64,000 nucleotides of DNA from Escherichia phage CMS-2020a. Both the position numbers and the translations under genes were made by a program. How positions within the stretch are numbered: position 1 is the first letter of the stretch; each line of letters begins with the position of its first letter. The notes beneath the pieces were generated by a model, which was not told the DNA's origin, made no database searches, and saw only the letters and a list, made by a program, of their open reading frames with translations. This document shows, piece by piece, positions 1 to 35,397 of this stretch. The DNA lies in the sequence record CP053388.1, one strand, 5' to 3'.

Positions 1-214
1 TTACAATCGGCAGATCGTCGACAAAAATAGATCTTGCGCCATTTACCAAGCCGCCAATTACACCTTCCCCAAGAAGATCGAGGATAGCGGCCATTGCACG
101 AGAATTTACGGTATCGTCGGCTTCAACCGGTGTACGGCTAGAGCTTTTGCTGCTTTTTTTACCACCCGCACCTGCAATAAACAGCGGTAACTTTTTCTTC
201 TTGAACTGTTCCAT
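1..214 (-). CDS. Tail tip central fibre protein, lambda gpJ-like (5' end only; gene continues past the window start)
   Basis: Minus-strand ATG at 214 directly downstream of the gpI-like gene; N-terminus MEQFKKKKLPLFIAGAGGKKSSKSS...DLLGEGVIGGLVNG resembles the lambda J N-terminus. Partial, so not in the ORF track. Confidence 0.5.
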   Translation of the reverse strand, partial: MEQFKKKKLPLFIAGAGGKKSSKSSSRTPVEADDTVNSRAMAAILDLLGEGVIGGLVNGARSIFVDDLPIV

Positions 215-232
215 GTTCAAAAAAATCCTTGT

Positions 233-826
233 TTACATTAGCTGGTCAATCGTGATTGAAGAACTCACAACCTGTGAGCCAACCAGAATTTCCTCGCCAT
301 AGATAAGTTGTACTGGGTTGCCCTGGTTTTCTGTATTTTGAGGGCCGTCGAAATAATAAGAGTTCGAGTTATCTGCCTGTCTCACACTTTCGTTAGTGGC
401 TTGCGGCGATATGATTTGTGATATGCCGCCCATCATCAGTGACAAACCGAGAGGTGCTAAAGCAGGCATCACTACCGCCGATACAACCAACAAAGCGGCC
501 CCTACTACCGTCTGAAACCACCCAAAAGCAGATCCACCGCTTCCTCGCGGAACAGGTGTAATGCGGATTTTGGCAATGTTGTCAGACTGCCCCATCATCT
601 GATATTCACTTTCGTCAACAGACCACTTGTGGCCCTGTTTATTGGTGATCTGGATGTGGTAACGGTCATAGGTTTTGATATTGCGCTTCATCCATGCTTT
701 AAACCCAGGCTTGTTGGCCTCAATTAAATCCAGAGCCTGTTTTGTATTGCGCACCTTTAGATGCCAGTGGCGGCCAAAATGTTTGGCCATAGGGCCGCCA
801 AGCTGCACATGAACTAACTCAGACAC
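233..826 (-). CDS. Tail assembly protein, lambda gpI-like
   Basis: 197 aa, hydrophobic C-terminal half, sits between the K-like and J-like genes in lambda M-L-K-I-J order. Confidence 0.55.
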   Translation of the reverse strand: MSELVHVQLGGPMAKHFGRHWHLKVRNTKQALDLIEANKPGFKAWMKRNIKTYDRYHIQITNKQGHKWSVDESEYQMMGQSDNIAKIRITPVPRGSGGSAFGWFQTVVGAALLVVSAVVMPALAPLGLSLMMGGISQIISPQATNESVRQADNSNSYYFDGPQNTENQGNPVQLIYGEEILVGSQVVSSSITIDQLM

Positions 827-1638
827 GTCTCATCTCCCTTGAGCAAGTCTCTGTGACGCAAGTGATGCGTCGTATGTTTCTGATACATTCCGCCGTAATA
901 AGCACGACAACTAAGGCGGTCGATCTGGTGATGAAGAATCATTCCATCGCCGATATAAACCGCGCAGTGGTCAGGCATTTTCCCGTATTGGATAAAGAAG
1001 ATGTCCCCACGTTGAGGCTCTGTTCCGGGAGCAAGACGCACCAATCCCTCGTTACGGTAGTTCTGATCGAGAATGTCGTTATCGCCGGTGTACCACGATG
1101 GAATATGCAGGTGTGCGTTCGGGTTTAGTTCGACGTTAAACTCACGCTTCAAATAGTCCCGACACAACATCCAGCAATCGAATACGCCAAATACATACGG
1201 TCTGCCCAGGTATGGCATTTCGAAACCATCAGGTGTGATCACATTCATCTCGCTAAAATGGAAAGGGGCATCTCCCTCAACATTCTTGCGAATAGCCAGA
1301 ATCATCCACGGAACTTCCGTCGCTTCGCAGCCTGCACGATCGGCATCAGATGCTTCTGCTGATTCATCAGTATGTGAATGCCAGATTGCGATAACATCAC
1401 CCGCATCCTCTGCCGCCATAATGTCGTCAACGTGCATTACAAAAGTGTTCTGCGGGTTCTCCGAAACATTCCGCGCTTCCATAAAGCGATATTTGTCGCC
1501 ATTAGTTCTAACCAGAAAGCCACACGCTTCATTAGGGTAGCGATTTATGGCGCAGAGATAGATTTGCTGCATAACGTCAGAGCCAAGCTCAGGGATTGCT
1601 TTATTACCCATACCGCGTAGCTCCAATAAATCCGCCAA
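814..1638 (-). CDS. Tail assembly protein, lambda gpK-like (JAB/MPN metalloprotease plus NlpC/P60 domain)
   Basis: JAMM-like motif (IAIWHSHTDE...SDAD) followed by an NlpC/P60-like Cys/His region (GVFDCWMLCRDY...HCAVYIG); position after the L-like gene. Confidence 0.75.
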   Translation of the reverse strand: MADLLELRGMGNKAIPELGSDVMQQIYLCAINRYPNEACGFLVRTNGDKYRFMEARNVSENPQNTFVMHVDDIMAAEDAGDVIAIWHSHTDESAEASDADRAGCEATEVPWMILAIRKNVEGDAPFHFSEMNVITPDGFEMPYLGRPYVFGVFDCWMLCRDYLKREFNVELNPNAHLHIPSWYTGDNDILDQNYRNEGLVRLAPGTEPQRGDIFFIQYGKMPDHCAVYIGDGMILHHQIDRLSCRAYYGGMYQKHTTHHLRHRDLLKGDETCLS

Positions 1639-2335
1639 AATGGATCACACCGTCGGCAAAATAATTCCGACGCGCATTACAGGCGTCATAACGTTTTGTG
1701 CAGTAATCCGCACCAGACATAGACGTCTGCTGGTTATTTTTGTCGAAATATGGACCGGTATAGCCGCATTCTGGCCCTCGGTATTTCCACGGGCAGGTGT
1801 TTTTAATGATCTGACGATACGGCAGTTGCACCCCCATCAAATCGAACACACTAGACAATTCAAACTCGACAACCTGATGAGTTTCGAGAGTTTTCTGTTC
1901 GATAAACCACATTTCATCCGGGAAATGTTGGTTTGGATCTGCTGTTGGGTTGCCGTCTTTAAAATTAACGGCATCGAGGAAGCGAGCCAGCGTCATCTTG
2001 CGAATAATGCGGCAGCCAACAAGATCGTCGTTTGCCTGAACTTCCGCAGAGACAGTTCCGGCAAAGTTCGATACCTGAATTTTTGGACGTGGCAACGTTC
2101 CCTGGCCAGTTTTGTCAAAGCCTGATGCTTTGATTGGCCACGGCTCGTATGTCACTCCTTGCCAGACGACCGGTTGCATCAGTTCGTTTGTTCCGGCGTG
2201 GAAGAATAACTTCCCCCCTGAAGTTGTGTTCGACATATCCAGTACGAACAACTCAATGAGTGCAGAGGGAGATAAGCTCTGAATATCAGCTTTAATTCCC
2301 ATTGTTTCATCCTTGAAATAAGTAGGCGCTAACAT
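1604..2335 (-). CDS. Minor tail protein, lambda gpL-like
   Basis: 243 aa with a C-terminal cysteine cluster (CPWKYRGPECGYTG...C...C) as in the gpL Fe-S region; order M-L-K. Confidence 0.7.
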   Translation of the reverse strand: MLAPTYFKDETMGIKADIQSLSPSALIELFVLDMSNTTSGGKLFFHAGTNELMQPVVWQGVTYEPWPIKASGFDKTGQGTLPRPKIQVSNFAGTVSAEVQANDDLVGCRIIRKMTLARFLDAVNFKDGNPTADPNQHFPDEMWFIEQKTLETHQVVEFELSSVFDLMGVQLPYRQIIKNTCPWKYRGPECGYTGPYFDKNNQQTSMSGADYCTKRYDACNARRNYFADGVIHFGGFIGATRYG

Positions 2336-2384
2336 CCTGTCAGCGCCACAATGATAGTAAATTAGTACTTACTTATCCAGATAC

Positions 2385-2720
2385 TTAAGCCTCAAATACT
2401 TGTCTGAATGTAGCAGTTAAGACACAGTACCCCTGATATCGCTTGACCGTATGACTGTCACATACAACTACAATCCGTTTTCCTCTTGGATTAACCCAAT
2501 AGAACGACTCAACGCCTGCTCGCTCAGTCAGGAAGTCATCGATTGCATTAATTTCGTTGTATGATCTGGTAAAGGTTAACGACCATTCTTCTTTAATACG
2601 ATTAAGACCTTGAGCCTGTCTCTGCTCGTAGTCATCACCAAAATTAAGTACCGTTACATTCGGTTTTACGCTCTTTTCAGATTCGTAATCTGGATACCAA
2701 TTAAACGTTTGTCTTTCCAT
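2385..2720 (-). CDS. Minor tail protein, lambda gpM-like
   Basis: 111 aa ORF immediately downstream of the tape measure gene; size and position match gpM. Confidence 0.6.
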   Translation of the reverse strand: MERQTFNWYPDYESEKSVKPNVTVLNFGDDYEQRQAQGLNRIKEEWSLTFTRSYNEINAIDDFLTERAGVESFYWVNPRGKRIVVVCDSHTVKRYQGYCVLTATFRQVFEA

Positions 2721-2762
2721 CTCACATCCTTGTGAGACTGCCCCGGTCGGGGCAGTCGATAG

Positions 2763-5700
2763 TTAGTTACGTTGAGTGTTTGGGTTGAGTGATCCGCCAG
2801 GGCGTTTCTCTTGAGCGATAGTCTCAAGCGCGATTGCTTTCATCCGTTGAGCGGCATTGTTCCATATGCTTTCTGTATCGCCGGATTCAGTTGTGCTACC
2901 GTCACTATGGACGTTGATCTCAATTGATACCGGAGAAAGAACATTTCCTCCTCCACTCATACCATCGGTACTGAGCGTTACAGGGATTGTTCGACCATCA
3001 GGCAATGGAACATACGCCTCATTCATATCGCCTTCCCCAAACAACGCCAATTGAGGTGAGTTGGCGATACCGCCTTTCTGGTATGCCCGGAGCGGGATCA
3101 CGCCGTCTTTTCCGAATATGCCACCATTTGCAAACTTCGGAATTGCAGGAATACCATTCGTGCCATCGGCAGCAGAACTGGTCAGATTGTTGAACCCGGA
3201 AGTTGAGCCAGAAGAACCGGACATCAATCCATCGAATCCACCACCAGCCCATACTGAAACCAAACCAGATGCAACTGTCGCGCCGAAATTCAACCACTTA
3301 TTACCAGAGCCGGAAGCATTAGCTCCAAGCATTGCAAACGCGGCAGACAGAGCGCCGGTAACAGAGCTGAGGTTCTGCATCGAGAAGATGGAGTCCTTCA
3401 CTGCTTTTGTCTCAGCATCTTTGGCTTCGGTGCTATCAAATAGCCCCGATACCCAGCTACCAATCGCATTTGTTGCTGTGCCAATTGCGCTGGTGGTCTG
3501 CTGTGTTGTTTGCCCCAATCCAGTTACCGAACTGGACGTCTCCTTCGTGGCTTCTCCTACCGACTTGTCGCCATTAACAGTGTTGCCCATTCGTACACCT
3601 TGATTGGCAACGGCAGAAGCAACTCCAGTGAGCAAATTGCCACTCTGTGAACTACCAGCTGCGGTGGTTCCCATCCCCAACATGTTCATTAGAGGCAGCG
3701 TGATTTGCGACTTCACGACCATATTGGTGATATCTTTCAAAATGGACTGAGATAGGCTGGAGAAGCTCATCTTCCCGTTAATAACGAAATCAGTCAGGAC
3801 ATCAGTTAAGCCACTAAACAAATCAGTCCAGGTGCTTTCGATCTGCTCTGCCAAGTTTTCGTATTCCAGTGCCAACTTCTGCGTCGCAGTCCCCGTCTCT
3901 TTAATAAGCGCGGTATTGCCAGCAGCAATCAGTTGATTGATTTTCTTTGTATAAAGCGCCACAACTTTAGGATCAGACGCCTTATCACGAAGTTCTATCA
4001 ACGCTTTGAGATTGCGGTTGTAGGTGTCTTCGAAATCAGCAACTTTCTCTTCGCGAGACGGCGTATAGCCAGCACTAATAATGGAATCCGCCTCCGGTGC
4101 CCAAGTGGAGATCATCTGCTCAACATTGCGGCGATTAAACATCTCGCGATATTCAGGTGTCGCATTTTTGAGGTCTTCAAGACGTTTTTTCGCCTTGTCG
4201 ATCATCTCTTGAGTGATGAACTCGTTAGGTACCGCATTAGCCAAATCTGTCAGCGATTTCGTTGTATCGCGAAGAGACTGATCAAACGATACCGTAGCCT
4301 TAGAGCTTTCACCCATTTGCCCCATAAGCTGATCAGCTTTGTCCAGAGCCTTCTGGTATCCGGCTGCCAGTTTCTGTTGCGCTGCCTGTTCCTTCTTGGC
4401 CGCACGCTGCGAGGCGTTAGCTGATCGTTGGGCTGCTTTCTCGGCAGCTGCTGCATCCTGTTCACGAGCTTTAGTAAGTGCGGCAATGGCTGCGGCACGC
4501 TCTTCATCGCTCATTTTCTCCAGAGAGCTGGCACTGGATGCTTTCTGCAAATTAAGCTGCGTCTTGAGTTGTTTAGGCCCAATAATCGGCTTACCTTCGA
4601 AGTCCATCATCGGAGTGCCGTCAGGCAAAGTACGCTGATAAGTCGCAGAATCCATCTGGTTTCGCATATATTGCGCCAACGCCTTCTGAGCAGCTTTATC
4701 AGTTGTACCTAACCCAAGAACAGTCCCCTGGTTTGACATTACGCCCTTACCAGTTTTGGCCGCGTTATCTCTCTCGAACTCTGCCTGAGTCAGCTCCTGA
4801 GCAACGGCTTCCAAATGCTCCTGATAACCACGAATACTGCCTTGCAGTTTCTGGATCTGCTCGGTATTTCCATCCTTTTTGGCTTTTTCAAGCTGATCAT
4901 TAAGAGTCGCAATTTGCTTCTCGGTCGCATTCTTACGAGAAGAAAGTGAATCAACCAGTTTTTGCGCAGGCTCCAGATAGCTTTTGTTTACCGTTTCACG
5001 TAACGGTGCCAATAGCTTGTTCTTTTCGTCATCTGAAAGTGAACCGTCATCATTGATTTTCTGGATCTTATCCAGAGCCTCTTGCCGGGCTTTCACGAAT
5101 GTTGCCGCGAAAATCTGGTTTTCCGCTCGAATTTTCTCAATCTGAGATTCGGCAGCCTCTTTAGCCAAACGCTTTGCTACAGCGCCGTCACCAAGAGCTA
5201 TCGTGCCGGTTATCTTTTGATACTCCTCCTGATTTTTTTTCAGGCGTGCTTCGATGTCAGCCTTCGACTCTTTGTGAGTAATAACACCGGCAGAGTTAGA
5301 TACGTAATTAACACCCTCACCAGTTTTTAATGCTCGTTGATCAGCAAGAATCTGCTTTTCGAGCTTTTCTGCGCGGTCGGCCATTTGTGCACGTTTGGCC
5401 GCTGTCATCGCTTCTGGTATTTTCCTAATCTCGTCAACGACCTTTGAAGTTTCGCTGCGGAGCATGGTCATGTACGTGATTAGGCCAGCAACAGCTACAG
5501 TGGCAACTGTAAATGCTGCCCCTATAGGGTTTGCTGCAATGAACGCCGTTAATCCAGCAAAAGCGCCTTTAAGCCCCGTAATCGCCCCACGGATGGCGAA
5601 AATAAGAGAGGGGATCGGAGCCAGCCCCATACGTGCCGCACGATTGAATCGAGTTACTGCTGTAGCGCCGAGGTTAAATGGAGTCTGTATGGCGGTCGCC

Positions 5701-7352
5701 ATCGTGGCAAAGGTGCTAACCATCTGGCTCCCAGCGCCAACTACCCCCATGATCCCTGCTCGCATCAGTTTGAACGCAACCATCGCGGCCACGACCTTAC
5801 CGAGATTAATTACCAGCTCTTGGTTCTTTGCTAACCATTGAGCAAGCTGACGCAACCCATCGATTGCCGTTGTTAACCCCGAACCTAAAGAATTGGCAAA
5901 CGAAATCCCTTCGGCGCTATTCATGATTGAAGCCAGTTCTTTCATCCCCTTCGATAGAGAATCCAGATATCCGGCCTGACCAACCCGATCAGCAAATAAC
6001 GTGAATGACGTCTGAAGTTGCGCCAGCGCACCTGTGTAGGTTTGCATCATGTCTTTCGCTGCGTTCTCATTCTCCGCACGCAGACCAACAAACATCAGAG
6101 ACAACGCCTGTTTTGCCTCAACCGTACCGCTGGCAACGGCTTTAGTCAGTTCCCCCATAGTGATGCCTGCGGCGTCTGCCATTGCCTGCATCGCGTTAGG
6201 AACGGCTTCACCTAATTGCTGACGTAGCTCTTCCATTGACACGACGCCCTTACCGGACATCTGCTGAACGGCCACAGCCGCACGTTTCAACAGCTCACTA
6301 TCACCACCAAAACGAGCAACGGAGTCCACCAGCGCCTTCAGAGAGCCATCGGTTGGATCTAAGCCAGCAGAACGAAACTTCACGAAGGAATCTGTTAACG
6401 CCTGCATCGCGAACGGCGCATTTTGAGCCATGTCTACGATGTACTTCATGTCATCGGCGGCAGCCTGGCCAGGGTTAGACTTCTCCTTATTCAACCCACG
6501 AAGCATCACCCGCATACGTTCCATTTCGGCCGCAGCTTCAACAATAGGCTTCTGCCATCCAAACATGATGTCAGTAACCGTTCTGGCTGCATCTCCGATC
6601 TCGCCAAGCAGGAAAATGTTGCCACGAAGGCCAGAGAACATACCTCCTTCGTTACTTTTACCGCTATGGCCAGAGCCGCTACGCCGCCCGCTGCCACCAT
6701 CGCCACTTCCAGATGTACGAACGCGTACCGGCTTGCTAATCAGTTGCTGACGTCCGATAACTTCGTCCATCTGCTCACGAACCTTTTTCAGTCCCTCGGC
6801 AGCCTGACTCGTTGTGACACCCCAATTACTGAGTCGCTTCGTCGTGGTATTAAGGCGCGTATTCATGCCACTCACGGACGCAGAGGCTTCTTTGACCTCC
6901 GTACCAAAGCGGCTTGCGCTTTTGCTTGCATAGGTCGCCCAATCAGAGAAATCATTTAGCTCTGATTGCACTTTACGTAATGACGCGGTGAGTTTATCTA
7001 CTGAAGAAGTTGTCGTATCGACGCGCTCAATCAGGGCTTTAAGACCAGAATTGAGGCTGGTGATGTTGCCACGCATTTTACGCGTAGCATCTGAAGCAAG
7101 CTCAAAACCGGCAGCTACATCCTGTAGTTTATCTGCCGTAGAATCGAGCTTGCTTTCCAGAACGCCAATGATACGGGCGACCGAACCCAAAGAGCGTTCA
7201 AAGGTTTGGATTTTTTGAGCAGGCTTTGTTACCTGCTCACCAAATCGAGTAAGCAGTTTCCCCGCACGATCGATTGACGCTGTAAACTGTTTGTCTTCCA
7301 GCGACAGGATAAACTCTACGTTTTGTGACATTCCCTTGTCATCCTCTGCCAA
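2763..7352 (-). CDS. Tail tape measure protein
   Basis: 1529 aa, long helical and coiled-coil regions, Gly-rich C-terminal segment, hydrophobic mid-region; follows the chaperone pair. Confidence 0.85.
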   Translation of the reverse strand: MAEDDKGMSQNVEFILSLEDKQFTASIDRAGKLLTRFGEQVTKPAQKIQTFERSLGSVARIIGVLESKLDSTADKLQDVAAGFELASDATRKMRGNITSLNSGLKALIERVDTTTSSVDKLTASLRKVQSELNDFSDWATYASKSASRFGTEVKEASASVSGMNTRLNTTTKRLSNWGVTTSQAAEGLKKVREQMDEVIGRQQLISKPVRVRTSGSGDGGSGRRSGSGHSGKSNEGGMFSGLRGNIFLLGEIGDAARTVTDIMFGWQKPIVEAAAEMERMRVMLRGLNKEKSNPGQAAADDMKYIVDMAQNAPFAMQALTDSFVKFRSAGLDPTDGSLKALVDSVARFGGDSELLKRAAVAVQQMSGKGVVSMEELRQQLGEAVPNAMQAMADAAGITMGELTKAVASGTVEAKQALSLMFVGLRAENENAAKDMMQTYTGALAQLQTSFTLFADRVGQAGYLDSLSKGMKELASIMNSAEGISFANSLGSGLTTAIDGLRQLAQWLAKNQELVINLGKVVAAMVAFKLMRAGIMGVVGAGSQMVSTFATMATAIQTPFNLGATAVTRFNRAARMGLAPIPSLIFAIRGAITGLKGAFAGLTAFIAANPIGAAFTVATVAVAGLITYMTMLRSETSKVVDEIRKIPEAMTAAKRAQMADRAEKLEKQILADQRALKTGEGVNYVSNSAGVITHKESKADIEARLKKNQEEYQKITGTIALGDGAVAKRLAKEAAESQIEKIRAENQIFAATFVKARQEALDKIQKINDDGSLSDDEKNKLLAPLRETVNKSYLEPAQKLVDSLSSRKNATEKQIATLNDQLEKAKKDGNTEQIQKLQGSIRGYQEHLEAVAQELTQAEFERDNAAKTGKGVMSNQGTVLGLGTTDKAAQKALAQYMRNQMDSATYQRTLPDGTPMMDFEGKPIIGPKQLKTQLNLQKASSASSLEKMSDEERAAAIAALTKAREQDAAAAEKAAQRSANASQRAAKKEQAAQQKLAAGYQKALDKADQLMGQMGESSKATVSFDQSLRDTTKSLTDLANAVPNEFITQEMIDKAKKRLEDLKNATPEYREMFNRRNVEQMISTWAPEADSIISAGYTPSREEKVADFEDTYNRNLKALIELRDKASDPKVVALYTKKINQLIAAGNTALIKETGTATQKLALEYENLAEQIESTWTDLFSGLTDVLTDFVINGKMSFSSLSQSILKDITNMVVKSQITLPLMNMLGMGTTAAGSSQSGNLLTGVASAVANQGVRMGNTVNGDKSVGEATKETSSSVTGLGQTTQQTTSAIGTATNAIGSWVSGLFDSTEAKDAETKAVKDSIFSMQNLSSVTGALSAAFAMLGANASGSGNKWLNFGATVASGLVSVWAGGGFDGLMSGSSGSTSGFNNLTSSAADGTNGIPAIPKFANGGIFGKDGVIPLRAYQKGGIANSPQLALFGEGDMNEAYVPLPDGRTIPVTLSTDGMSGGGNVLSPVSIEINVHSDGSTTESGDTESIWNNAAQRMKAIALETIAQEKRPGGSLNPNTQRN

Positions 7353-15872: not shown

Positions 15873-17129
15873 CTATCGAGAACCACCAAGAATAACACGG
15901 TTTTTGACTGGATACCTACGATGTACTGGATAGCCCAATGCGTCTGCACTATGCTCAATGCCACCTGTCTTATCCATATCTCGTGTTCCAGGCTTGTAGA
16001 TGACTTTTTCCAGTGAATCAATCAAATGCTTGCACTTCGGATCGATATACAGCCGGATATCTCCAGATGCGGACATCAGCATTCGGTTAACAGCATTAAC
16101 ACGATCCGCAATTGGCGGGTGCTTTTTCGAATAATCGACACGTAAGAATCCCTTCTCTTTGAATATGTCTACGTCAGACTCCCCACGAGCATGTTGGCGA
16201 TAAGCACCTGCCGGATCTGGAAATACCGTTACCTGTGATTTCCAGCGCCAGAAGCGTCTCTCAAGCTCATCACAAACTTCTGCCGTGTTAGAGGAAAAGA
16301 GCACCAATTCATCAATTGCCCATAGCTCACCATTTGGCTGAGGTTGCAAAATTACTGAAGACATCGGGTCAATGTTGAAGTCCTGCCCTACCCATATAGG
16401 CAACCGAGGGTTGAACTGAAGCGGTTTTACATGCACGTTACGATCGAACGGGTAGTAAACGCGCCCGGACATGTTCTCAAAGCTGGCCAGGTACTCCTGA
16501 GCGAACGATTTGGGGTCCATATCGTTCTTAGCAGCTTCAATTTCCGCCGTAGGTACAAACGGAGAATCGGCAGTTACAAACTGCCAGCTCTTCCACTGTC
16601 CCTTTCTTTGCAGCTCTACGTTCTGGCCTATCGTCCACAGTTTGTGAAATTCCGAGAAGCCTTTTGGCGTACCAATGATCAGTGCACCGCCGCGTGTCGA
16701 TGAAAGAGTAGGTCGTAACACCTTGTACCAGGTGTCAGCCTTCATATCCTGAAATTCATCAAGCACTACAAAATGCAACGCTACGCCGCGCAGAGTGTCA
16801 GGCTTATCAGCACCTTTGAGGGCGATCTCCGAACCGTTCTTCAACACGATTGTCATCGTGGTGTCGTTCTTTTTCCTAACCCACTTACGAGGCAGAACTT
16901 CCTGTAGATCGTCCCACAAAATCTGGCGAGCCATCTGGTAAGTAGGAGCGACATACCAGACCCTTTGCTTTTTTTCCTTTGCCGCCGCACGAATAATAGT
17001 GGAGATCGACAACCGGGATTTTCCCCAGCGTCGACCAGCACAAACAACTTTAAATCGATGCGGAGACTGGAAGACTTTCATCTGTCCAGAATGCAGTTGC
17101 ACAAGACTGAGCGAGGACGGGATTGCCAT
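15873..17129 (-). CDS. Terminase large subunit
   Basis: Walker A (VVCAGRRWGKS) and Walker B (HFVVLDEFQD) in the N-terminal ATPase, acidic residues in the C-terminal half; ATGA overlap with the upstream small subunit. Confidence 0.85.
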   Translation of the reverse strand: MAIPSSLSLVQLHSGQMKVFQSPHRFKVVCAGRRWGKSRLSISTIIRAAAKEKKQRVWYVAPTYQMARQILWDDLQEVLPRKWVRKKNDTTMTIVLKNGSEIALKGADKPDTLRGVALHFVVLDEFQDMKADTWYKVLRPTLSSTRGGALIIGTPKGFSEFHKLWTIGQNVELQRKGQWKSWQFVTADSPFVPTAEIEAAKNDMDPKSFAQEYLASFENMSGRVYYPFDRNVHVKPLQFNPRLPIWVGQDFNIDPMSSVILQPQPNGELWAIDELVLFSSNTAEVCDELERRFWRWKSQVTVFPDPAGAYRQHARGESDVDIFKEKGFLRVDYSKKHPPIADRVNAVNRMLMSASGDIRLYIDPKCKHLIDSLEKVIYKPGTRDMDKTGGIEHSADALGYPVHRRYPVKNRVILGGSR

Positions 17130-23350: not shown

Positions 23351-23773
23351 ATGAAATACTCGCTTCTCCCTCTACTAACGTTACCAGTGTTGATGCTTAC
23401 CGCGTGCCAATCACGCCCAATATCAATCCATGACGCCAAACCAGCACCGCAGGCCAAAGTGTTCAAGTATCAAAGCGCAGCGCCAGCTACGTTGGTGGTA
23501 ATGAGAGACACAGGTTTTGTAGGAGCTGGATGTGATGCTTCCATTTTCATCAACGGCGAAACTGTCGCAAAACTGGCTACAGGCGAAAAAGCGACTTTCC
23601 ATTTAAATGCCGGAGTATTAATTGTGGGTGCATCTCTTGAAGGTGCAGGTTTATGTGCTCTAAACCCCGCTCGTCAAGAGCGAGAAACGACTCTGAAGAA
23701 TGGAGACACAAAAGCGTTCAGGGTGTTCACCAGCAATTCTGGTGACATCGACATTCTGCCAACAACTCTGTGA
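23351..23773 (+). CDS. Putative lipoprotein (start adjusted to MKYSLLPLLTLPVLMLTAC)
   Basis: Signal peptide with lipobox L-T-A-C; track ORF begins 14 codons earlier. Confidence 0.55.
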   Translation: MKYSLLPLLTLPVLMLTACQSRPISIHDAKPAPQAKVFKYQSAAPATLVVMRDTGFVGAGCDASIFINGETVAKLATGEKATFHLNAGVLIVGASLEGAGLCALNPARQERETTLKNGDTKAFRVFTSNSGDIDILPTTL

Positions 23774-23777
23774 TGAC

Positions 23778-24302
23778 ATGACAACCAAAGATATTACCTA
23801 CGGTATCCAAGCTGAACTCTGGCCGCGAGATTACACTAACGTTGAAAAACTACTGATGTTCTGGCGCAGAGAACAAATTCCTGTAAGGGTCACTCTCGAA
23901 GATGGCCAGGCGTTTTGCATGTACGTTTATGGCCTCATGCCATCTCGTAACAAAGTTGACCTTTGCCCAGCCCCTTTTGACAAAGAAAATCGTATAAGGC
24001 TCCCACTTGAACGCATTAGTACAATTGAATCAGGTGTGGTTGACAGTATCGCTCACGATTTCAAAGGTCGACTAACAGTTCACCCTGATTATGTCGATAA
24101 TCGGCCATCACGCCGCGATTTTTTTGCAATTTGCAACCAAGCCTACAAAGCAAACAAATCTATAAGGGTGTACATGGCGGATGGCCGTGAAATTGAGGGG
24201 GTGTCAGCAGGTGCAGATGCTTGTCAGGTTACACTACGTGTCGAGAACGGTAGAAAAATAGTTGTTTTGTTCGATTGGGTTGAACGAATTTTGCCTTTTT
24301 GA
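23778..24302 (+). CDS. Hypothetical protein (start adjusted to MTTKDITYG)
   Basis: Track ORF 23700-24302 overlaps the lipoprotein gene; in-frame ATG at 23778 follows the lipoprotein stop. Confidence 0.45.
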   Translation: MTTKDITYGIQAELWPRDYTNVEKLLMFWRREQIPVRVTLEDGQAFCMYVYGLMPSRNKVDLCPAPFDKENRIRLPLERISTIESGVVDSIAHDFKGRLTVHPDYVDNRPSRRDFFAICNQAYKANKSIRVYMADGREIEGVSAGADACQVTLRVENGRKIVVLFDWVERILPF

Positions 24303-24614: not shown

Positions 24615-24626
24615 ATCTATAAGGTT

Positions 24627-24657
24627 AATAACCGGCTAAGTCCGGTTATTATTTTTC
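24627..24657 (+). terminator. Rho-independent terminator
   Basis: Hairpin aaccggctaagtccggtt followed by attattttt. Confidence 0.6.
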
Positions 24658-24805
24658 ACATCACTTCTTTATATCTACAAATCAAATAACCTAAATATAT
24701 ATAAGGTCTAAAGCCGCAATCGATTATTTATTTAGGGAACACCTTCGACGATCTCGCTTTTATTTCTAGGACTTTCATCCCTGCAAAAAATTTTAAAAAA
24801 AACAC

Positions 24806-24833
24806 TTGCAATCTTTTTTCGTATATCGATAAT
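24806..24833 (+). promoter_or_regulatory. Sigma70-like promoter of the moron operon
   Basis: TTGCAA, 16-17 bp spacer, GATAAT, preceded by an A/T-rich UP-like tract; about 65 nt upstream of the ATG at 24899. Confidence 0.5.
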
Positions 24834-24898
24834 TGAACTCGTCGAAAGCGAAGACGCTAACGACAATAAATTTTAAATTTACATAAGGAAAAATCATC

Positions 24899-25549
24899 AT
24901 GGCTAACATTATCATTTCTAAAAAATCCATCGTTGAAGCTGCTTCCATTGTATCCGATGAACTGCGCGAAAAAGCAGATCTGGCAACTCAAACATACAAC
25001 GAACATTATAAAAATGGTACGCACACTAAAGCAGACAAAGCAAATATGCAAGCTGCGACCACTAAACTAGCTTACTTCATCAACAACGTTGTAAACGCTG
25101 TAGAAGACGAAAAATTGTGCTCTGTTTTCTACTATGCGATTAAAGCAAGCAAACAAGCGCCAGAAGTATTTTTTCGTGATGCAATGACTAATAGTTATTC
25201 TCTGGAAAAACTGGTTTATCTGGTTAAATCAATTAAATCTGGTAAATGCATTTATTCCATCGCTGATATGTCTGGATCTCGTGTATTCGCTTTAATCGAT
25301 ATGATTAACGACGAGATCGACACGTTCACCAATGGCGCTGTTTTCGATTTAATGAATGAAGCTAAAAAAGCGTGTGAAATTAAATTGGACGCTGGCTATA
25401 CTCAAGCCAACCAGTTGATCAATCTTTGCGAACGTCTCGGACTTGTTGAAAAAGTCAAAGGAGCTGGGAGCGCCAAAGCTGGTACACAGCAATATCGCTT
25501 TATCAAGAATGATTTCTACAATTATTTAGCTGATGCTTTTAAAGCGTAA
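24899..25549 (+). CDS. Moron protein 1, unknown function
   Basis: 216 aa ORF with strong RBS (aagga) in an AT-rich segment; no motif recognised. Confidence 0.6.
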   Translation: MANIIISKKSIVEAASIVSDELREKADLATQTYNEHYKNGTHTKADKANMQAATTKLAYFINNVVNAVEDEKLCSVFYYAIKASKQAPEVFFRDAMTNSYSLEKLVYLVKSIKSGKCIYSIADMSGSRVFALIDMINDEIDTFTNGAVFDLMNEAKKACEIKLDAGYTQANQLINLCERLGLVEKVKGAGSAKAGTQQYRFIKNDFYNYLADAFKA

Positions 25550-25597
25550 TTAATGGAATCAAGCGCCCACAATGGGCGCTTTAAAGGAGCTTTAAAG

Positions 25598-25801
25598 ATG
25601 GTCAGCTATGACAAGATCCGCGCAGAATATCGCGCAAATTATCGCGCTTATAAACTGGAATTAATCGACGATTTGATCGCGCAACGCGACCAATTAAATT
25701 TTACGTTTTCTGATTTGCTTAACAGCAAGCGAGATTGCAAGCGCAAACGTGAATACTTACGCTTAAGCGCATTAATCGGAAAACTTCAAAATTCTATTTA
25801 A
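25598..25801 (+). CDS. Moron protein 2, small basic protein of unknown function
   Basis: 67 aa from ATG at 25598 with RBS aaggag; the track ORF begins earlier at 25553. Confidence 0.45.
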   Translation: MVSYDKIRAEYRANYRAYKLELIDDLIAQRDQLNFTFSDLLNSKRDCKRKREYLRLSALIGKLQNSI

Positions 25802-25822
25802 TTTTTTTTAAGGAGCTTAATC

Positions 25823-26053
25823 ATGTTTGTTCTTATCGCTGGCGTTAACGTCCATAATGAATATTATGTTAATCGCATCGCTGGGATCGCTGGTTACGCT
25901 GGGCGCGTAGTCGAGCTTATAGACGAAACGACGCGCAAAATTGACTTATTGAGCGACCAGGAGCGAAAAAAAGCAGACGTGAACGACGCTGATATATTTT
26001 TAATGTTAAAAGCGTTCGTAGAAATGGGATTTAAAATCAGTTTACACAAATAA
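25823..26053 (+). CDS. Moron protein 3, small protein of unknown function
   Basis: 76 aa with RBS aaggag 7 nt upstream. Confidence 0.5.
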   Translation: MFVLIAGVNVHNEYYVNRIAGIAGYAGRVVELIDETTRKIDLLSDQERKKADVNDADIFLMLKAFVEMGFKISLHK

Positions 26054-26056
26054 AAT

Positions 26057-26084
26057 CGAGCGCCCACTATGGGCGCTTTTTTCG
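26057..26084 (+). terminator. Rho-independent terminator
   Basis: Hairpin agcgcccactatgggcgct followed by tttttt. Confidence 0.65.
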
Positions 26085-26103
26085 TTTCCAATACACCTAC
26101 CAT

Positions 26104-26129
26104 AACGCGCCAATGATGGCGCGTTTTTA
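26104..26129 (+). terminator. Second stacked rho-independent terminator
   Basis: Hairpin acgcgccaatgatggcgcgt followed by ttttat. Confidence 0.55.
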
Positions 26130-26540
26130 TTGTCTTTAACTCACTCCAACAACATAAAAATAAGCGCCAAAATAACGCCATAGACGCGCTTTTATATCCT
26201 TACCAGTACATGCCCATTACTTAACACATTAACGCGCTTAAAACGCGTTATATTGCGCTATAGAGTATGGTTAATCATTGGCTTTTAGTCTTGCTATGTG
26301 ATCCGCGCTTATTTGTCGGTGCGGATCGGTATTTTGTTTTGTTCTGTATCCGCTCGCGTATTATGTGCGCGTGATTTTTCACTTAATCACACCACTTAAT
26401 CACGTATGTGATTATGCTACGAAAGAAATCTGGATGTCTCAGGTGACGAAAGTCATCATAATTTTCCCCGCTCACCTGTCCGACAACCGCTGGTTGGATT
26501 CCACCAGCTTCCCGATGTTTTTTCTACACAAAGGCGAATG

Positions 26541-26623
26541 CAGCCGTTTCCCGAAAAAATCCTGGCCGTTCCCCCGTCGGCTCATGAATACGTTCCTCGC
26601 CGCTTCTGAAAATTTCCCTGCGG
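26541..26623. repeat. Iteron-like array, type 1, cluster 1
   Basis: agccgtttcccgaaaaa, ggccgttcccccgtcgg, acgttcctcgccgc, cgcttctgaaaatttccctgcgg at about 22 bp spacing. Confidence 0.5.
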
Positions 26624-26669
26624 CAGCTGGTGGCTATAGAGAAAGGGCCGTTTCTGGCCCTCTTCTCAG

Positions 26670-27152
26670 TTACACGCCATCAAGGATGTGGATGCGGTTG
26701 CTTGCGTATACATTCAGCATAAAGTTAGCGCAAAACAGTTTCCATGTATCAACGCCAGCGGTATACGTAATGTTTTTGCATTTAATCGCATTGTTGGCGA
26801 TCCGCATCCCCTGCGATACTGCTTCATCGTCGGAAAATTTGAACGACGATTGAGTTTTAATCCAGACAGAAATCTGCGTAGCGAACTCAATCAGCTTGGA
26901 CTGGCAGAATCGCCCGGAGCGCACCGGAAAGACGAACGTTCCGAATCCAGAATTTACCACATATGCTTTCTCAAATACCCTCGAGTAACGACGATTGCCA
27001 ATGATGTCGCGTGCAATAATGCATTTTTCTTGTGCTGACAGTTCTACCGTCTCATTGTCGCGCCATGCACCAAGTACTCGTTTTTCAATGTCAGAGAACG
27101 TTACAGCGATATTGCCATGTGCGGGTGCGTTTACAGTAGCGATAAAATTCAT
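26670..27152 (-). CDS. Hypothetical protein
   Basis: 160 aa with RBS (aagga) before ATG at 27152 and motif A at 27174-27187; preferred over the overlapping plus-strand ORF. Confidence 0.5.
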   Translation of the reverse strand: MNFIATVNAPAHGNIAVTFSDIEKRVLGAWRDNETVELSAQEKCIIARDIIGNRRYSRVFEKAYVVNSGFGTFVFPVRSGRFCQSKLIEFATQISVWIKTQSSFKFSDDEAVSQGMRIANNAIKCKNITYTAGVDTWKLFCANFMLNVYASNRIHILDGV

Positions 27153-29806: not shown

Positions 29807-30131
29807 GACCGAAGGCTGACCGTAGGGGTGTTACGGGGGGATAAAATCAGGAGTTGAATAAATACGAAAAAGGAGGCGACACCTCTCCTTCCCTCCCCAC
29901 TTATACATACCTGGCTTCTTCGCTATACATGTTGTGTTTTCTTCGTGTTTTATCTGTCTCAACCTCTCTATAGGCGTTAATGCTCACTCCTTCCAGAACG
30001 TTCTATACGGCGACTATTTCTGTTGGTGAATTGGGTGTGTTGTTTTCTCTGTCGGTGTATGTGGTTTCGTTCGTTTTGCGGTGGTTCTTCTAGGGGGTGT
30101 TCTCGTCGTTTTGGTGATTGTTCTTCTCCAT

Positions 30132-30490
30132 GTATGGAGTAATGGCAGGTGGGCGATTCCTTTCGTTGTTGTGTTTGAGTTGTTTGTCTGGAGTGCGTGA
30201 AGGGCTTTTGTAGTTATTCGTGTATTGGGTAATGGCGTTTCCCGTGATTGTTATGTTTCGTGTCTTTTGGGATTGAGAGAATCCTTGTGGTTACAGGCTT
30301 CGTTGGGGTTTCAGTGATTCTGGTGTTTCTTCGCTGTTTGGGTAATGGCCTGTCGTGGGTATCGCGCGTATGAATGTTTTCGGATTGCCTGTGAAAGTTA
30401 GGTTGGTTGTCCGGTAGCCTGGGGAGAAGAGGTGGGTCTTTTCGGTAGCCTGCCATAAAGAGGTTGGTTGTTTTTGGGAATGGCATGTGT
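30132..30490. repeat. Degenerate tandem repeats in a GT-skewed non-coding tract
   Basis: ggagtaatggcaggtggg (30132), ttgggtaatggcgtttcc (30222), ttgggtaatggcctgtcg (30338), ttgggaatggcatgtgtg (30473) about 100-130 bp apart; only short low-complexity ORFs. Confidence 0.5.
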
Positions 30491-30864
30491 GTTATTTAGT
30501 TGTTTTGTTATACCTGAAAATGAGTTGTTTATATGGTTGTGTAACGCAACGGGAGCGATTTTGAGCGTGTGTTTTTGTTGGTAGTGTGTTGGGTCGTCTG
30601 TGGTGAAAATTGGACGCTGTGGCGCTGTCTGCTGCGTAGAGTTACGGGTATAAGAAGTGATGTGTGAAAACGTCAATTTTTTAGACCAAATCGGGTGAAA
30701 GCGTTGACGTTTCGTTGATCTGTTATTTAGTTGTTTTCTTATTTGTATAAACAACCATAACCTATTGATATTTAAAGATATGATTGCAGCTATGGAAGGG
30801 GAGTAGTGGCGATCAACGGATTCTTATAGAAAAGAATCAAATTGTGACCGCCATTATCAATGTT

Positions 30865-32105: not shown

Positions 32106-34139
32106 TTACTTAACTTGGTGGCCTGGTTTAGCACCAGCATCCGGGCTTAACAGGAAGATATCTTTTCCGCCAGGGCCAGCAGCCATCACCATGCCTTCGG
32201 AGATACCGAAGCGCATTTTACGCGGTGCCAGGTTAGCCACCATAATGGTGTGACGACCAATCAGTGCCTGTGGATCTGGATAAGCGGAACGAATGCCTGA
32301 GAAGACATTACGTTTTTCTCCGCCGAGATCCAGTGTCAGGCGCAGCAGTTTGTCAGAACCTTCGACAAACTCCGCGTTTTCAATCAGCGCCACACGCAGG
32401 TCAACTTTGGCGAAGTCGTCAAAGGTGATGGTTTCCTGAATCGGGGCGTCAGCCAGTGGGCCAGTTACCGGTGCAGCTGTGGCTTTCACTTCTTCTTTGG
32501 ATGCTTCCACCAGTGCTTCCACCTGTTTCATATCGATACGGTTATACAGTGCCTTGAACGGATTCACTTTATGGCCCAGCAGCGGTTGCTGGATACCATC
32601 CCAGGTCAGTTCTGTATTCAGGAATGCTTCTGCACGTTCAGTCAGTTTCGGCAGTACCGGTTTCAGGTACGTCATCAGCACGCGGAACAGGTTAATGCCC
32701 ATAGAGCAAATCGCCTGCAGATCGGCATCGCGTCCTTCCTGCTTCGCCACCACCCACGGAGCCTGTTCATCAACATAGCGGTTAGCCAGGTCAGCCAGTG
32801 CCATGATTTCACGGATAGCTTTGCCAAATTCGCGGCTTTCCCATGCTTCGCCAATCACTTCAGCGGCATCAGTAAAGGTTTTGTACAGTTGCGGGTCAGC
32901 CAGTTCGCTTGCCAGCACGCCGTCAAAACGCTTGTTGATAAAGCCTGCATTACGGGAGGCCAGGTTAACCACTTTGTTCACGATATCGGCATTCACGCGC
33001 TGAACGAAATCTTCCAGGTTGAGATCGATATCATCAATGCGCGAAGAGAGTTTCGCAGTGTAGTAGTAACGCAGGCTGTCGGCGTCAAAATGATTCAGCC
33101 AGGTGCTGGCTTTAATAAAGGTGCCGCGAGACTTGGACATCTTCGCACCGTTCACCGTCACATAGCCATGAACAAACAGGTTGGTCGGCTTGCGGAAGTT
33201 GCTGCCTTCTAGCATGGCAGGCCAGAACAGGCTGTGGAAGTAAACGATATCTTTGCCGATGAAGTGGTACAGCTCGGCGGTGGAGTCTTTCTTCCAGTAT
33301 TCGTCGAAGCTGGTAGTGTCGCCGCGTTTGTCGCACAGATTCTTGAAGGAACCCATGTAGCCAATCGGCGCGTCCAGCCAGACGTAGAAGTATTTGCCCG
33401 GTGCGTTCGGAATTTCAAAACCGAAGTAAGGTGCGTCACGGGAGATATCCCACTGTTGCAGGCCAGATTCAAACCACTCCTGCATTTTGTTTGCCACCTG
33501 CTCCTGCAACGCACCGCTGCGGGTCCATGCCTGCAACATTTCGCTGAAAGAAGGCAGATCAAAGAAGAAGTGTTCGGAATCACGCATTACCGGTGTAGCG
33601 CCAGAAACTACCGATTTCGGCTCGATCAGTTCCGTCGGGCTGTATGTCGCGCCGCAGACTTCACAGTTATCGCCGTATTGATCCGGCGCTTTACATTTCG
33701 GGCATGTGCCTTTTACAAAACGGTCCGGCAGGAACATGCCTTTTTCCGGGTCGTACAGCTGAGAGATGGTGCGGTTTTTAATAAAACCGTTCTCTTTCAG
33801 GCGAGTGTAGATAAGCTCGGACAACTGACGGTTCTCTTCGCTGTGCGTCGAGTGATAGTTGTCATAGCTGATGTTAAAGCCTGCGAAATCAGTCTGATGT
33901 TCCTGACTCATTTCGCCAATCATCTGCTCCGGTGTGATACCAAGCTGCTGTGCTTTCAGCATGATCGGCGTACCGTGGGCATCGTCGGCACAGATGAAAT
34001 TAACCTCGTGGCCGCGCATTCGCTGGTAACGAACCCAGACATCAGCCTGGATGTGCTCCAGCATATGGCCGAGGTGGATTGAGCCGTTAGCGTACGGCAG
34101 CGCGCACGTCACCAGAATTTTCTTCGCGACTTGGGTCAT
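32106..34139 (-). CDS. metG: Methionyl-tRNA synthetase
   Basis: 677 aa from [29 protein letters not shown] (HIGH motif) through KMSKS to the C-terminal dimerisation/tRNA-binding domain; matches E. coli MetG nearly residue for residue from memory. The track ORF (to 34268) adds a spurious 43-aa extension. Confidence 0.95.
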
Positions 34140-34296
34140 AGTAGGCATTACTTCTTTGTAGTGAAAAGGGGCTTGATAGTAACAAAATGGCCTTATGTCT
34201 GCCATGTGATAACAGCATTTCTCATAAATGATTAAATGTCGTAGCTGGAGTACACTACAAGGCGACAATTGCGCAAATTAAAATAAAGGAGACGGG

Positions 34297-35397
34297 ATGA
34301 GCGAGTCCAAATCGCCGGATGCCCTGAGAGCAATGGTAGCCGGTACGCTGGCTAATTTTCAGCACCCAACCCTGAAACACAACCTGACTACGCTTAAAGC
34401 GTTACACCATGTTGCGTTGATGGATGACACACTGCATGTCGAACTAATCATGCCTTTCGTGTGGAATAAGCCTTTTGAAGACCTGAAAGAGCAATGTAGT
34501 GGTGATCTGCTCCGTATCACTGGCGCAAAGGCTATTGACTGGAAGCTGTCGTACAACATTGCCACGCTTAAGCGTGTCAAAAACCAACCAGGCATTAATG
34601 GCGTTAAGAACATTATCGCCGTCAGCTCAGGCAAGGGCGGCGTGGGTAAATCCTCCACGGCGGTAAACCTGGCACTGGCGTTGGCTGCTGAAGGTGCGAA
34701 AGTTGGTATTTTGGATGCCGATATCTATGGTCCATCAATTCCAACCATGCTGGGCGCGGAAAACCAACGTCCAACCTCACCTGACGGTACTCACATGGCA
34801 CCTATCATGTCTCATGGCCTGGCAACCAACTCTATTGGTTATCTGGTCACCGACGACAATGCAATGGTGTGGCGTGGACCGATGGCCAGCAAGGCGCTGA
34901 TGCAGATGTTGCAGGAAACATTGTGGCCTGATCTGGACTATCTTGTTCTCGATATGCCGCCGGGCACTGGTGATATTCAGTTGACGCTGGCGCAGAACAT
35001 TCCTGTAACTGGTGCTGTTGTGGTAACTACGCCGCAAGACATCGCGCTGATCGATGCGAAGAAAGGCATTGTGATGTTCGAAAAAGTCGAAGTGCCGGTA
35101 CTGGGTATCGTTGAAAACATGAGTGTGCATATTTGCAGTAACTGCGGTCATCACGAGCCAATTTTTGGCACCGGTGGCGCACAGAAACTGGCCGAGAAAT
35201 ACAACACGCAGTTGTTAGGCCAAATGCCACTTCATATCTCTCTTCGTGAAGATCTGGATAACGGAACACCAACCGTTATTAGTCGTCCAGATAGCGAATT
35301 TACAGCTATTTATCGTGACCTCGCAGATCGCGTTGCCGCCCAAATGTATTGGCAAGGTGAAGTAATACCTGGCGAAATCGCATTCCGCGCAGTGTGA
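34297..35397 (+). CDS. apbC: Fe-S cluster carrier ATPase ApbC/Mrp
   Basis: Deviant Walker A SGKGGVGKSSTAVNLA, CxxC motif (ICSNCGHH); divergent from metG exactly as in the E. coli mrp-metG locus. Confidence 0.9.
   Translation: MSESKSPDALRAMVAGTLANFQHPTLKHNLTTLKALHHVALMDDTLHVELIMPFVWNKPFEDLKEQCSGDLLRITGAKAIDWKLSYNIATLKRVKNQPGINGVKNIIAVSSGKGGVGKSSTAVNLALALAAEGAKVGILDADIYGPSIPTMLGAENQRPTSPDGTHMAPIMSHGLATNSIGYLVTDDNAMVWRGPMASKALMQMLQETLWPDLDYLVLDMPPGTGDIQLTLAQNIPVTGAVVVTTPQDIALIDAKKGIVMFEKVEVPVLGIVENMSVHICSNCGHHEPIFGTGGAQKLAEKYNTQLLGQMPLHISLREDLDNGTPTVISRPDSEFTAIYRDLADRVAAQMYWQGEVIPGEIAFRAV

Follow-up and report, generated by a model that had tools for sequence, protein, structure and literature searches.

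What is a compact, AT-rich transcription unit of three small genes doing on a temperate phage-plasmid: does it serve the lysogen as acquired cargo, or is it part of the element's own control machinery? The question arises at positions 24660-26130 of the 64-kb stretch of DNA analysed here (the window, to which all positions refer), where three plus-strand open reading frames (ORF-A, ORF-B and ORF-C; 216, 67 and 76 residues) lie between terminators. A sequence-only reading had taken this cassette for a moron driven by a host-type promoter and for a candidate undescribed system of the defence, anti-defence or toxin kind. Our own account, which we favour tentatively and, as a whole package, with slightly less than even confidence, is that of a backbone regulatory module in which a lytic-phase, probably self-regulated DNA-binding regulator (ORF-A) is followed by exchangeable small early genes (ORF-B and ORF-C). 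Most of the weight lies on the statements that the unit is not a moron expressed in the lysogen, is not a known defence system and encodes a DNA-binding regulator with a local site, and less of it on the specific role of ORF-A.

To judge from its sequence, the window is part of an Escherichia coli SSU5-like phage-plasmid. The cassette region is 99.5% identical to the E. coli plasmid p4_0.2, and its best matches among phages are Escherichia phages CMS-2020a (95%), PhiR41_1 (94%) and Cyrano (91%) and Salmonella phage SSU5 (82%). Plasmid p4_0.2 is annotated as a 110-kb element with tail, capsid and terminase genes, its own replisome and a RepB-type plasmid initiator, and also with toxin-antitoxin pairs, metG and apbC. 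Almost all genes of the phage-plasmid are on the minus strand, and the cassette is part of a small plus-strand island.

The distribution of ORF-A indicates that it is a fixed backbone gene of SSU5-type phage-plasmids, and not accessory cargo or a moron. The family is tiny: a profile run exhaustively against 1.84 billion representative proteins had only 24 matches. The homologues (102 clusters) come nearly all from Enterobacteriaceae, their long contigs being mostly about 100-115 kb; the most distant relative, P0122, was not placed on any viral contig. In the 89 loci that were fetched for comparison, every locus carries ORF-A in the same place, from E. coli to Xenorhabdus, and the order FljA-like gene, ORF-A, 160-residue minus-strand gene is kept wherever both neighbours are detectable. 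The most distant full-length members (31-33% identity), on Xenorhabdus contigs of ~110 kb, again follow a FljA-like gene. Among 5426 complete E. coli genomes, ORF-A is found on a plasmid in 237 and the terminase type of this element in 216. The moron proposed by the sequence-only reading therefore survives only in part: ORF-B and ORF-C alone behave as movable cargo, while ORF-A is universal and syntenic.

The cassette is indeed more AT-rich than its flanks (37.9% guanine-cytosine (GC) content versus 46.5% for the window). It is the lowest-GC 1471-bp stretch of the window (0.4% of windows of that size are equally low, every one of them overlapping the cassette), and ORF-A has the lowest GC content of the 50 long ORFs. 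This compositional difference is real, but it is not a mark of recent import: ORF-A is 6-13 points below its surroundings in 11 of the 11 loci examined, Xenorhabdus included, and its AT-richness is therefore an old, maintained property. On the E. coli plasmids, copies at least 99% identical account for 4 of 237 ORF-A sequences as against 200 of 216 terminase sequences, and synonymous divergence (dS) between E. coli copies of ORF-A is 0.14-0.37. ORF-A is thus more diverged than the nearly clonal terminase, which implies that the history of the regulatory island is deeper or more mosaic than that of the structural module.

Expression in the lysogen was taken from published RNA sequencing (RNA-seq) of E. 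coli LF82 with the phage-plasmid Cyrano (S1 Table of PMC9928086). Cyrano carries ORF-A (92% DNA identity) followed by ORF-C and has no ORF-B. In lysogeny broth (LB), ORF-A (CYRAN_113) reached 2.78/2.32 and ORF-C (CYRAN_112) 2.32/2.32, in log2(FPKM+5) units (FPKM, fragments per kilobase per million) with a floor of 2.32; both genes have 5-6 normalised counts, below the median of 9.8 for the element (PMC9928086). The upstream neighbours CYRAN_114 to CYRAN_118 are expressed in the same lysogen, with 18-114 normalised counts for the helicase gene, a 92-residue gene, a lipoprotein gene and the FljA-like gene, all of them 5' of the upstream terminator (PMC9928086). The repressor, RepA, ParA, KacAT, HicAB and CYRAN_43 genes range from 50 to 7000 normalised counts, and the Cyrano morons among them (KacAT, HicAB and CYRAN_43) are 10-700 times above background (PMC9928086). 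ORF-A rose only in the sample taken after 6 h in macrophages (5.67/5.49), in which the major capsid protein gene went from 2.96 (LB) to 7.35-7.79 (PMC9928086). In the one lysogen measured, the unit is switched off while the element persists as a plasmid prophage, and its behaviour is that of a lytic gene, which contradicts a host-promoter-driven cassette serving the lysogen and also argues against a role in plasmid replication or partition. The literature searched yielded no second transcriptome for elements of the SSU5-like kind.

We consider it quite improbable that the unit is a prophage-expressed defence, anti-defence or toxin cassette of benefit to the lysogen. The autonomous promoter and terminators, the atypical composition, the orphan proteins, the variation of ORF-B and ORF-C among close relatives (as expected of accessory genes) and the divergence of ORF-A relative to the terminase would all suit such a cassette, but ORF-A is universal, syntenic and a predicted DNA binder, and the unit lies at the floor in a lysogen in which the known morons are transcribed well above background. 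For a defence system we found nothing in support: ORF-A resembles a regulator, and a search of PADLOC-DB v2 gave no significant match, the sole sub-threshold one being ORF-B (E-value 0.027, 12 bits). An anti-defence role of ORF-B or ORF-C during infection is possible, and it would be compatible with the regulatory module that we favour.

At the sequence level the three proteins are orphans, as the sequence-only reading had said. None of them gave a significant match, by sequence or by profile, in Pfam, NCBIfam, PADLOC or the PDB, and their PHROGs families are of unknown function (ORF-A occurs only in phrog_1513) or, in one case (phrog_6145, ORF-B), mis-named. The 216-residue protein is not a recognisable homologue of any routine protein of phage replication or structure. 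At the structural level the absence of a recognisable motif does not stand, since structure prediction gives ORF-A a winged helix. The AlphaFold2 model (predicted local distance difference test score, pLDDT, of 83) has two parts: an N-terminal domain (residues 8-114) in which three helices accompany a long helical hairpin, and, towards the C-terminus, a canonical winged helix at ~128-201 with helices at 128-137, 145-158 and 168-179, strands at 142-144, 183-186 and 198-201, and the wing between the last two strands. This arrangement corresponds to the winged-helix topology H1-S1-H2-H3-S2-wing-S3 with a polar recognition helix. Conservation is among the highest in two segments, the putative recognition helix YTQANQLINLCER (YTQ.NQL..L.ER.G) and the Gly/Lys wing, and extends to the distant members. 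Weak structural neighbours of ORF-A are, among others, the winged helix of Cdc6/Orc1, RTP and TubR; comparison with initiators detected no similarity, either in sequence or over the full-length structure. In the model, then, ORF-A looks like a DNA-binding regulator rather than an effector.

Upstream of the promoter lies an element of three conserved boxes (Table 1), absent from the sequence-only reading. The spacers between the boxes are exactly 19 and 20 nt in 77 of the 77 loci scored, whereas the distance from box 3 to the -35 hexamer varies from 31 to 52 nt in the same loci. Box identity is 79-98% overall and that of the spacers 19-50%; against Xenorhabdus-type loci the boxes remain 86-95% identical, compared with 29-35% for ORF-A and 33-47% (close to random) for the spacers. 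The element is single-copy in the 110-kb plasmid and occurs once per contig in 84 IMG/VR contigs, and ORF-A lies 120-180 nt 3' of it in all 72 loci that reach far enough (six other stored loci end too early). Comparison of these loci shows that the element and ORF-A always stay together, even in lineages whose ORF-A proteins retain about 30% identity. Conserved blocks separated by random spacers of fixed length are the signature of a protein-binding DNA site, and ORF-A, whose recognition helix has been conserved together with the boxes, is for that reason the simplest candidate binder. A structured RNA was rejected in favour of such a site, as RNAalifold gave -0.41 kcal/mol for the element, with no consensus structure and no covariation. 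Two other interpretations were set aside by eye: box 3 as an IHF site, which fits WATCAANNNNTTR in many lineages although not in that of the window and leaves the invariant bases uncovered, and the boxes with the -10 as a promoter of the sigma28 or T7-like kind, a poor fit. Neither the boxes nor the palindrome described below look like shared operators, both being single-copy in the 110-kb plasmid and unlike the intergenic DNA of the immunity region.

These properties might also be those of a lytic replication origin or another specific site, made up of the three-box element and the adjacent AT-rich tract of variable length, activated by transcription from the neighbouring promoter and bound by ORF-A as origin-binding protein. 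The logic would be analogous to that of lambda O/ori and P1 RepL/oriL, which are silent in lysogens. The element is rigid inside but floats relative to the promoter, it is single-copy and linked one to one with ORF-A, and the weak structural neighbours of ORF-A named above would not be out of place in an origin-binding protein. Furthermore, the unit is silent in the plasmid state, in which RepA/RepB does the replication, and these phages have their own replisome and T4-like recombination genes, yet no recognised lytic initiator. A UvsW-like helicase gene is located 2 kb upstream. Nevertheless we judge this alternative clearly unlikely: the boxes are not iterons but three different sequences in one copy each, the operon lacks a helicase-loader or replication gene, ORF-A resembles no initiator in sequence or over its full-length structure, and the cumulative GC skew shows no switch at the cassette.

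The promoter proposed by the sequence-only reading (TTGCAA/GATAAT with an A-tract) does not stand out in a consensus scan by itself, which found 8 sites in 5 kb against 11.2 expected by chance. The call is supported by conservation: members of the family show little or no variation in the AAAAA tract, in CTTG of the -35 or in the -10. The sequence TCGATAATT overlaps the -10; we take it to resemble the high-affinity (nucleation) motif of H-NS, tCGATAAATT. Directly downstream follows a palindrome, likewise single-copy in the plasmid, which is either an operator or a hairpin at the 5' end of the mRNA. In the alignment of this palindrome 93% of the cells pair. Every sequence keeps the outer pair, 13 with A-U and 4 with G-C; compensation at the inner pair is partial (G-C in 5, A-U in 3, G-U in 1, unpaired in 8). 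As RNA it folds at -9.8 kcal/mol (z -2.35).

A 5' stem-loop next to a FljA-like gene raises the thought of post-transcriptional control. The 200-residue product of that gene matches the Pfam family Flag1_repress (FljA, repressor of phase-1 flagellin; E-value 2.5e-84), with a weak Hfq-like match in its C-terminal part, and the gene is a candidate lysogenic-conversion gene that would turn off host flagellin. Proteins of the FljA family act on mRNA leaders, so that the neighbour could repress the ORF-A mRNA through the stem-loop, the pair forming a lysis-lysogeny switch. The FljA-like gene is found directly 5' of ORF-A in nearly all loci (detected weakly in the distant ones), it is expressed where ORF-A is silent, and the ORF-A transcript carries the conserved stem-loop at its 5' end. 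Shared gene order is weak evidence by itself, however, and the ORF-A leader scored 17 against the E. coli fliC leader compared with 13.9 +/- 2.4 for shuffled leaders (p about 0.12), other genes reaching up to 20. Transcriptional silencing is the simpler explanation because the ORF-A mRNA itself is absent, and we regard the FljA switch as very improbable.

Behind ORF-A the regulatory module continues as a slot that holds none, one or two small genes and whose edges are formed by the hairpin GCGCCCAnnnTGGGCGC, which has a loop of 3 nt on a perfect stem of 7 bp. Only two copies of this hairpin occur in the window, and the plasmid as a whole has no others (0.01 expected); they are parts of 31-nt direct repeats that are 87% identical and 497 nt apart. 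In the left copy, GCGCCCACAATGGGCGC is followed by TTTAAAGGAGC, a shortened T-run fused to the ribosome-binding site (RBS) of ORF-B. The hairpin begins 15-25 nt past the ORF-A stop codon in 75 of the 78 Enterobacteriaceae loci scored; L055 and L084 are outside the two-mismatch pattern, and L031 ends before the hairpin. It is absent from the five Xenorhabdus-type loci (L085-L089).

ORF-B and ORF-C may each be present or absent, and at least seven states of the slot were found among the loci: empty (ORF-A, hairpin and full T-run), B alone (SSU5 and many Salmonella, Enterobacter and Klebsiella elements), C alone (Cyrano), C' alone (C' being a 45-51%-identical variant of ORF-C), B+C (the present window), B+C', and C'+C with a third hairpin between the two. 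The outer ends of every occupied slot are hairpins, the closing one right after the last stop codon, and some two-gene slots have an internal hairpin. Wherever a gene follows the hairpin, the T-run is cut to 3-4 T and leads straight into AAGGAG. A search for further cargo with the hairpin-plus-RBS pattern returned only B, B-like, C and C' genes, plus two unrelated chance matches. The Xenorhabdus-type loci have an empty slot, beyond which lies an apparent toxin-antitoxin-like pair (L088 / L086 10029-10703) of a 98-residue helix-turn-helix protein and a 110-113-residue protein, absent from the E. coli elements.

The B and C families are confined to contigs typical of these phage-plasmids, and ORF-B is 36% identical (E-value 3e-9) to the same-slot gene of a group whose ORF-A is 62% identical. 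Each occurs without the other in many elements, so they are neither a toxin-antitoxin pair, for which family matches were also missing, nor obligatory partners of ORF-A. ORF-B is basic (isoelectric point 9.6) and hydrophilic (grand average of hydropathy -0.65), with predicted helical or coiled-coil character and no hydrophobicity of a transmembrane kind. The label "MIT/CorA metal transporter" (SSU5_119 record, phrog_6145) is unfounded for a 67-residue, basic, hydrophilic protein without transporter features, and the name appears to be a propagated annotation error. For ORF-C, one of five models (pLDDT 69) suggests a small alpha/beta protein and was too uncertain for a fold search.

Taken together, the module consists, in order, of the three-box element, a sigma70-like promoter with A-tract, the palindrome or 5' stem-loop, ORF-A, the hairpin-bounded slot and a double terminator. 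ORF-A may bind its own upstream boxes and/or the palindrome at +2 to +24, so that the unit would be self-regulated and fire at infection or induction; ORF-A would then be a lytic-phase DNA-binding regulator or an architectural protein. In the plasmid state the promoter could be silenced by an operator-type block at the palindrome, by H-NS that coats the AT-rich DNA, or by both. ORF-B and ORF-C have no promoter of their own and would be transcribed by read-through of the first hairpin, weakened by its short T-run (3-4 T) and its fusion to the RBS. They would be passenger early proteins, candidate host-takeover or anti-defence factors, and the ~30-nt hairpin repeat might serve as the site of homologous recombination by which elements exchange them.

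Several points weigh against this account. The expression data come from one strain and from bulk RNA-seq without an induction time course, so we infer "early" from the sigma70-type promoter, and the rise of ORF-A at 6 h in macrophages was modest. The winged helix is a prediction whose structural matches are generic (Foldseek E-value about 0.03), the helical N-terminal domain had no structural match, and DNA binding by ORF-A is a prediction likewise. A classical site for an activator or repressor would rarely have three unlike boxes at an unfixed distance from the promoter, an arrangement that would suit a site with a non-transcriptional role equally well; a host protein or another phage protein could bind them instead of ORF-A. 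The roles of ORF-B and ORF-C are those of candidates, and the ORF-C model is of low confidence.

A more far-reaching version, which we consider unlikely though not negligible, is that ORF-A and its rigid three-box site constitute an undescribed dedicated nucleoprotein switch (a lytic origin with its initiator, or a commitment step from plasmid to lytic growth) and that the slot is a hotspot of cassette exchange. If this were true, small proteins for anti-defence or host takeover would be supplied from the slot as soon as infection begins, and the exchange would be the equivalent, in a temperate phage, of the shuffling at promoter-early stem-loop (PeSL) motifs.

Table 1. Positions of the cassette features and of the neighbouring regions mentioned in the text.
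Feature	Position	Strand	Description
Terminase gene	15873-17129		compared with ORF-A for divergence
FljA-like gene	23700-24302	+	200 residues; Flag1_repress
Upstream terminator	24626-24651	+	plus T-run; scan; RNA fold -12.6 kcal/mol, z -3.7
Three-box element	24697-24772	+	upstream of promoter; conserved boxes, fixed spacers
Box 1	24697-24706	+	ATATATAAGG; then 19-nt spacer
Box 2	24726-24745	+	ATTTATTTAGGGAACACCTT; then 20-nt spacer
Box 3	24766-24771	+	CTAGGA within TTTATTTCTAGGAC (24759-24772)
Promoter	24785-24833	+	A-tract; -35 TTGCAA 24806-24811; 16-nt spacer; -10 GATAAT 24828-24833
Palindrome / 5' stem-loop	24841-24864	+	GTCGAAAGCG-AAGA-CGCTAACGAC; about +2 to +24 of predicted transcript
ORF-A	24899-25549	+	216 residues; phrog_1513 = SSU5_120 = CYRAN_113
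Left repeat copy	25552-25582	+	31-nt direct repeat with hairpin GCGCCCACAATGGGCGC (25563-25579); left slot boundary
ORF-B	25598-25801	+	67 residues; SSU5_119; phrog_6145
ORF-C	25823-26053	+	76 residues; phrog_1585; CYRAN_112 in Cyrano
Right repeat copy	26049-26084	+	hairpin GCGCCCACTATGGGCGC (26060-26076), full T-run; right slot boundary and first terminator
First downstream terminator	26058-26078	+	scan, fold
Second, independent intrinsic terminator	26104-26125 (feature 26104-26130)	+	AACGCGCCAATGATGGCGCGTT plus T-run; scan, fold
Non-coding region	26130-26670		~540 bp; GC-rich hairpins
Skewed region	30000-30700		~700 bp; no ORF
metG and apbC/Mrp-like genes	32106-35397		host-like

The remaining anatomy of the unit agrees with the sequence-only reading, which had described a self-contained transcription unit with its own promoter, terminators and composition. 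The three ORFs have near-consensus RBSs (AAGGA for ORF-A, AAGGAG for ORF-B and ORF-C, 8-9 nt 5' of the ATG); an 82-residue reading of ORF-B from 25553 was rejected, as it lacks an RBS and overlaps the hairpin. All three are under purifying selection, with ratios of non-synonymous to synonymous substitution (dN/dS) of 0.05-0.37 (ORF-B 0.06-0.24; ORF-C 0.08-0.37), and are therefore real genes. The terminator upstream and the two stacked ones downstream were recovered both by the scan (11 terminator-like sites in all against 5.4 +/- 2.2 expected) and by folding, well below shuffled sequences (z -3.7 and -5.0). The upstream one ends the operon of the helicase, FljA-like and 102-residue genes and insulates the cassette from this lysogen-expressed operon; the second downstream one is kept in the loci with an empty slot. 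Beyond what the sequence-only reading had listed are the three-box element, the palindrome and a fourth hairpin, that of the left repeat copy.

Some observations were made outside the cassette. The non-coding region between it and the 160-residue minus-strand gene is rich in GC-rich hairpins, in which the motifs CCGTTTCCC and GAAAATTTCCCTG recur, and its motif GACCGTTTCCCG is still traceable in the Xenorhabdus elements; the Prokaryotic Genome Annotation Pipeline (PGAP) annotates a 69-residue ORF within it, and it is possibly an origin, a non-coding RNA or a set of binding sites. Rfam gave no family on the window, and two sub-threshold matches were judged to be chance. The skewed region has a GC skew of +0.44 and an AT skew of -0.53 (its plus strand is G+T-rich), contains no ORF, tandem repeat, tRNA or Rfam match, and lies inside an annotation gap of ~1.5 kb in p4_0.2. 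Further downstream, the host-like genes for methionyl-tRNA synthetase (metG) and an apbC/Mrp-like ATPase adjoin a gene for an S24 LexA-like peptidase, which is strongly expressed in the Cyrano lysogen.

Clinical Enterobacteriaceae commonly harbour SSU5-type phage-plasmids. These elements carry resistance genes, yet in the literature examined their lysis-lysogeny control and their lytic regulators are essentially undescribed. Here an orphan predicted DNA-binding protein is accompanied by a non-coding site that is better conserved than the protein, and both belong to a unit that is silent in the plasmid state; the pairing and the silence make them a concrete, testable candidate for a component of this missing control. 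The slot between the hairpins offers a natural, compact instance of the exchange of small orphan genes among temperate elements and a defined place in which to seek new early or anti-defence proteins.

How does the module compare with known systems? Morons, in the concept of Juhala and Hendrix, are autonomous promoter-gene-terminator units between the backbone genes of temperate phages. The cassette resembles them in its own promoter and terminators, its deviant base composition and the coming and going of ORF-B and ORF-C among close relatives. It differs in that ORF-A is universal and syntenic, the AT-richness is family-wide, and the variable genes lack a promoter of their own. Of two further properties expected of a moron, variable presence was found for ORF-B and ORF-C only and not for ORF-A, and expression from the repressed prophage was not seen in the single strain, LF82 with Cyrano. 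Three further systems were considered and rejected. Integron gene cassettes do not apply, as the hairpin is perfect and not of the imperfect attC type and the sole tyrosine recombinase is ~50 kb away. An iteron-type replicon is contradicted by mutually unlike boxes, by the silence of ORF-A in the plasmid state and by RepB/RepA encoded elsewhere and expressed. Type III partition (TubR/TubZ/tubC) would call for a nucleoside triphosphatase (NTPase), of which the unit has none, and the unit is silent in the lysogen while ParA, encoded elsewhere, is expressed.

ORF-A shares its predicted fold with winged-helix regulators (ArsR, MarR, PadR, Fur) and with TubR. It differs from them in having no detectable sequence homology, in its extra helical N-terminal domain of 125 residues without a match, in the lack of a ligand-sensing or NTPase partner, and in three unlike boxes in place of a simple palindrome or iteron array. 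Analogues among plasmid prophages and early regulators are P1 repL/oriL under the C1-controlled promoter P53 and T4 MotA with the small AsiA. With these the unit has in common a prophage-silent gene with a strong host-type promoter and a predicted two-domain DNA-binding protein of ~210 residues followed by small proteins, although no sequence or structural similarity was detected and no master-repressor operator is common to the unit and the immunity region.

The closest described phenomenon is the modular shuffling of small orphan early ORFs in PeSL cassettes of T4-type phages (PMC2839356, PMC4122927). The repeat of the present element differs from the PeSL motif in being a terminator-like hairpin fused to an RBS, without a -35/-10 promoter; there is one slot behind one conserved gene instead of many hyperplastic regions, the host of the slot is a temperate phage-plasmid, and recombination is read from sequence comparison. 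In both cases, small orphan ORFs, likely early genes, are edged by a short stem-loop motif, and insertions, deletions and replacements between relatives fall exactly there.

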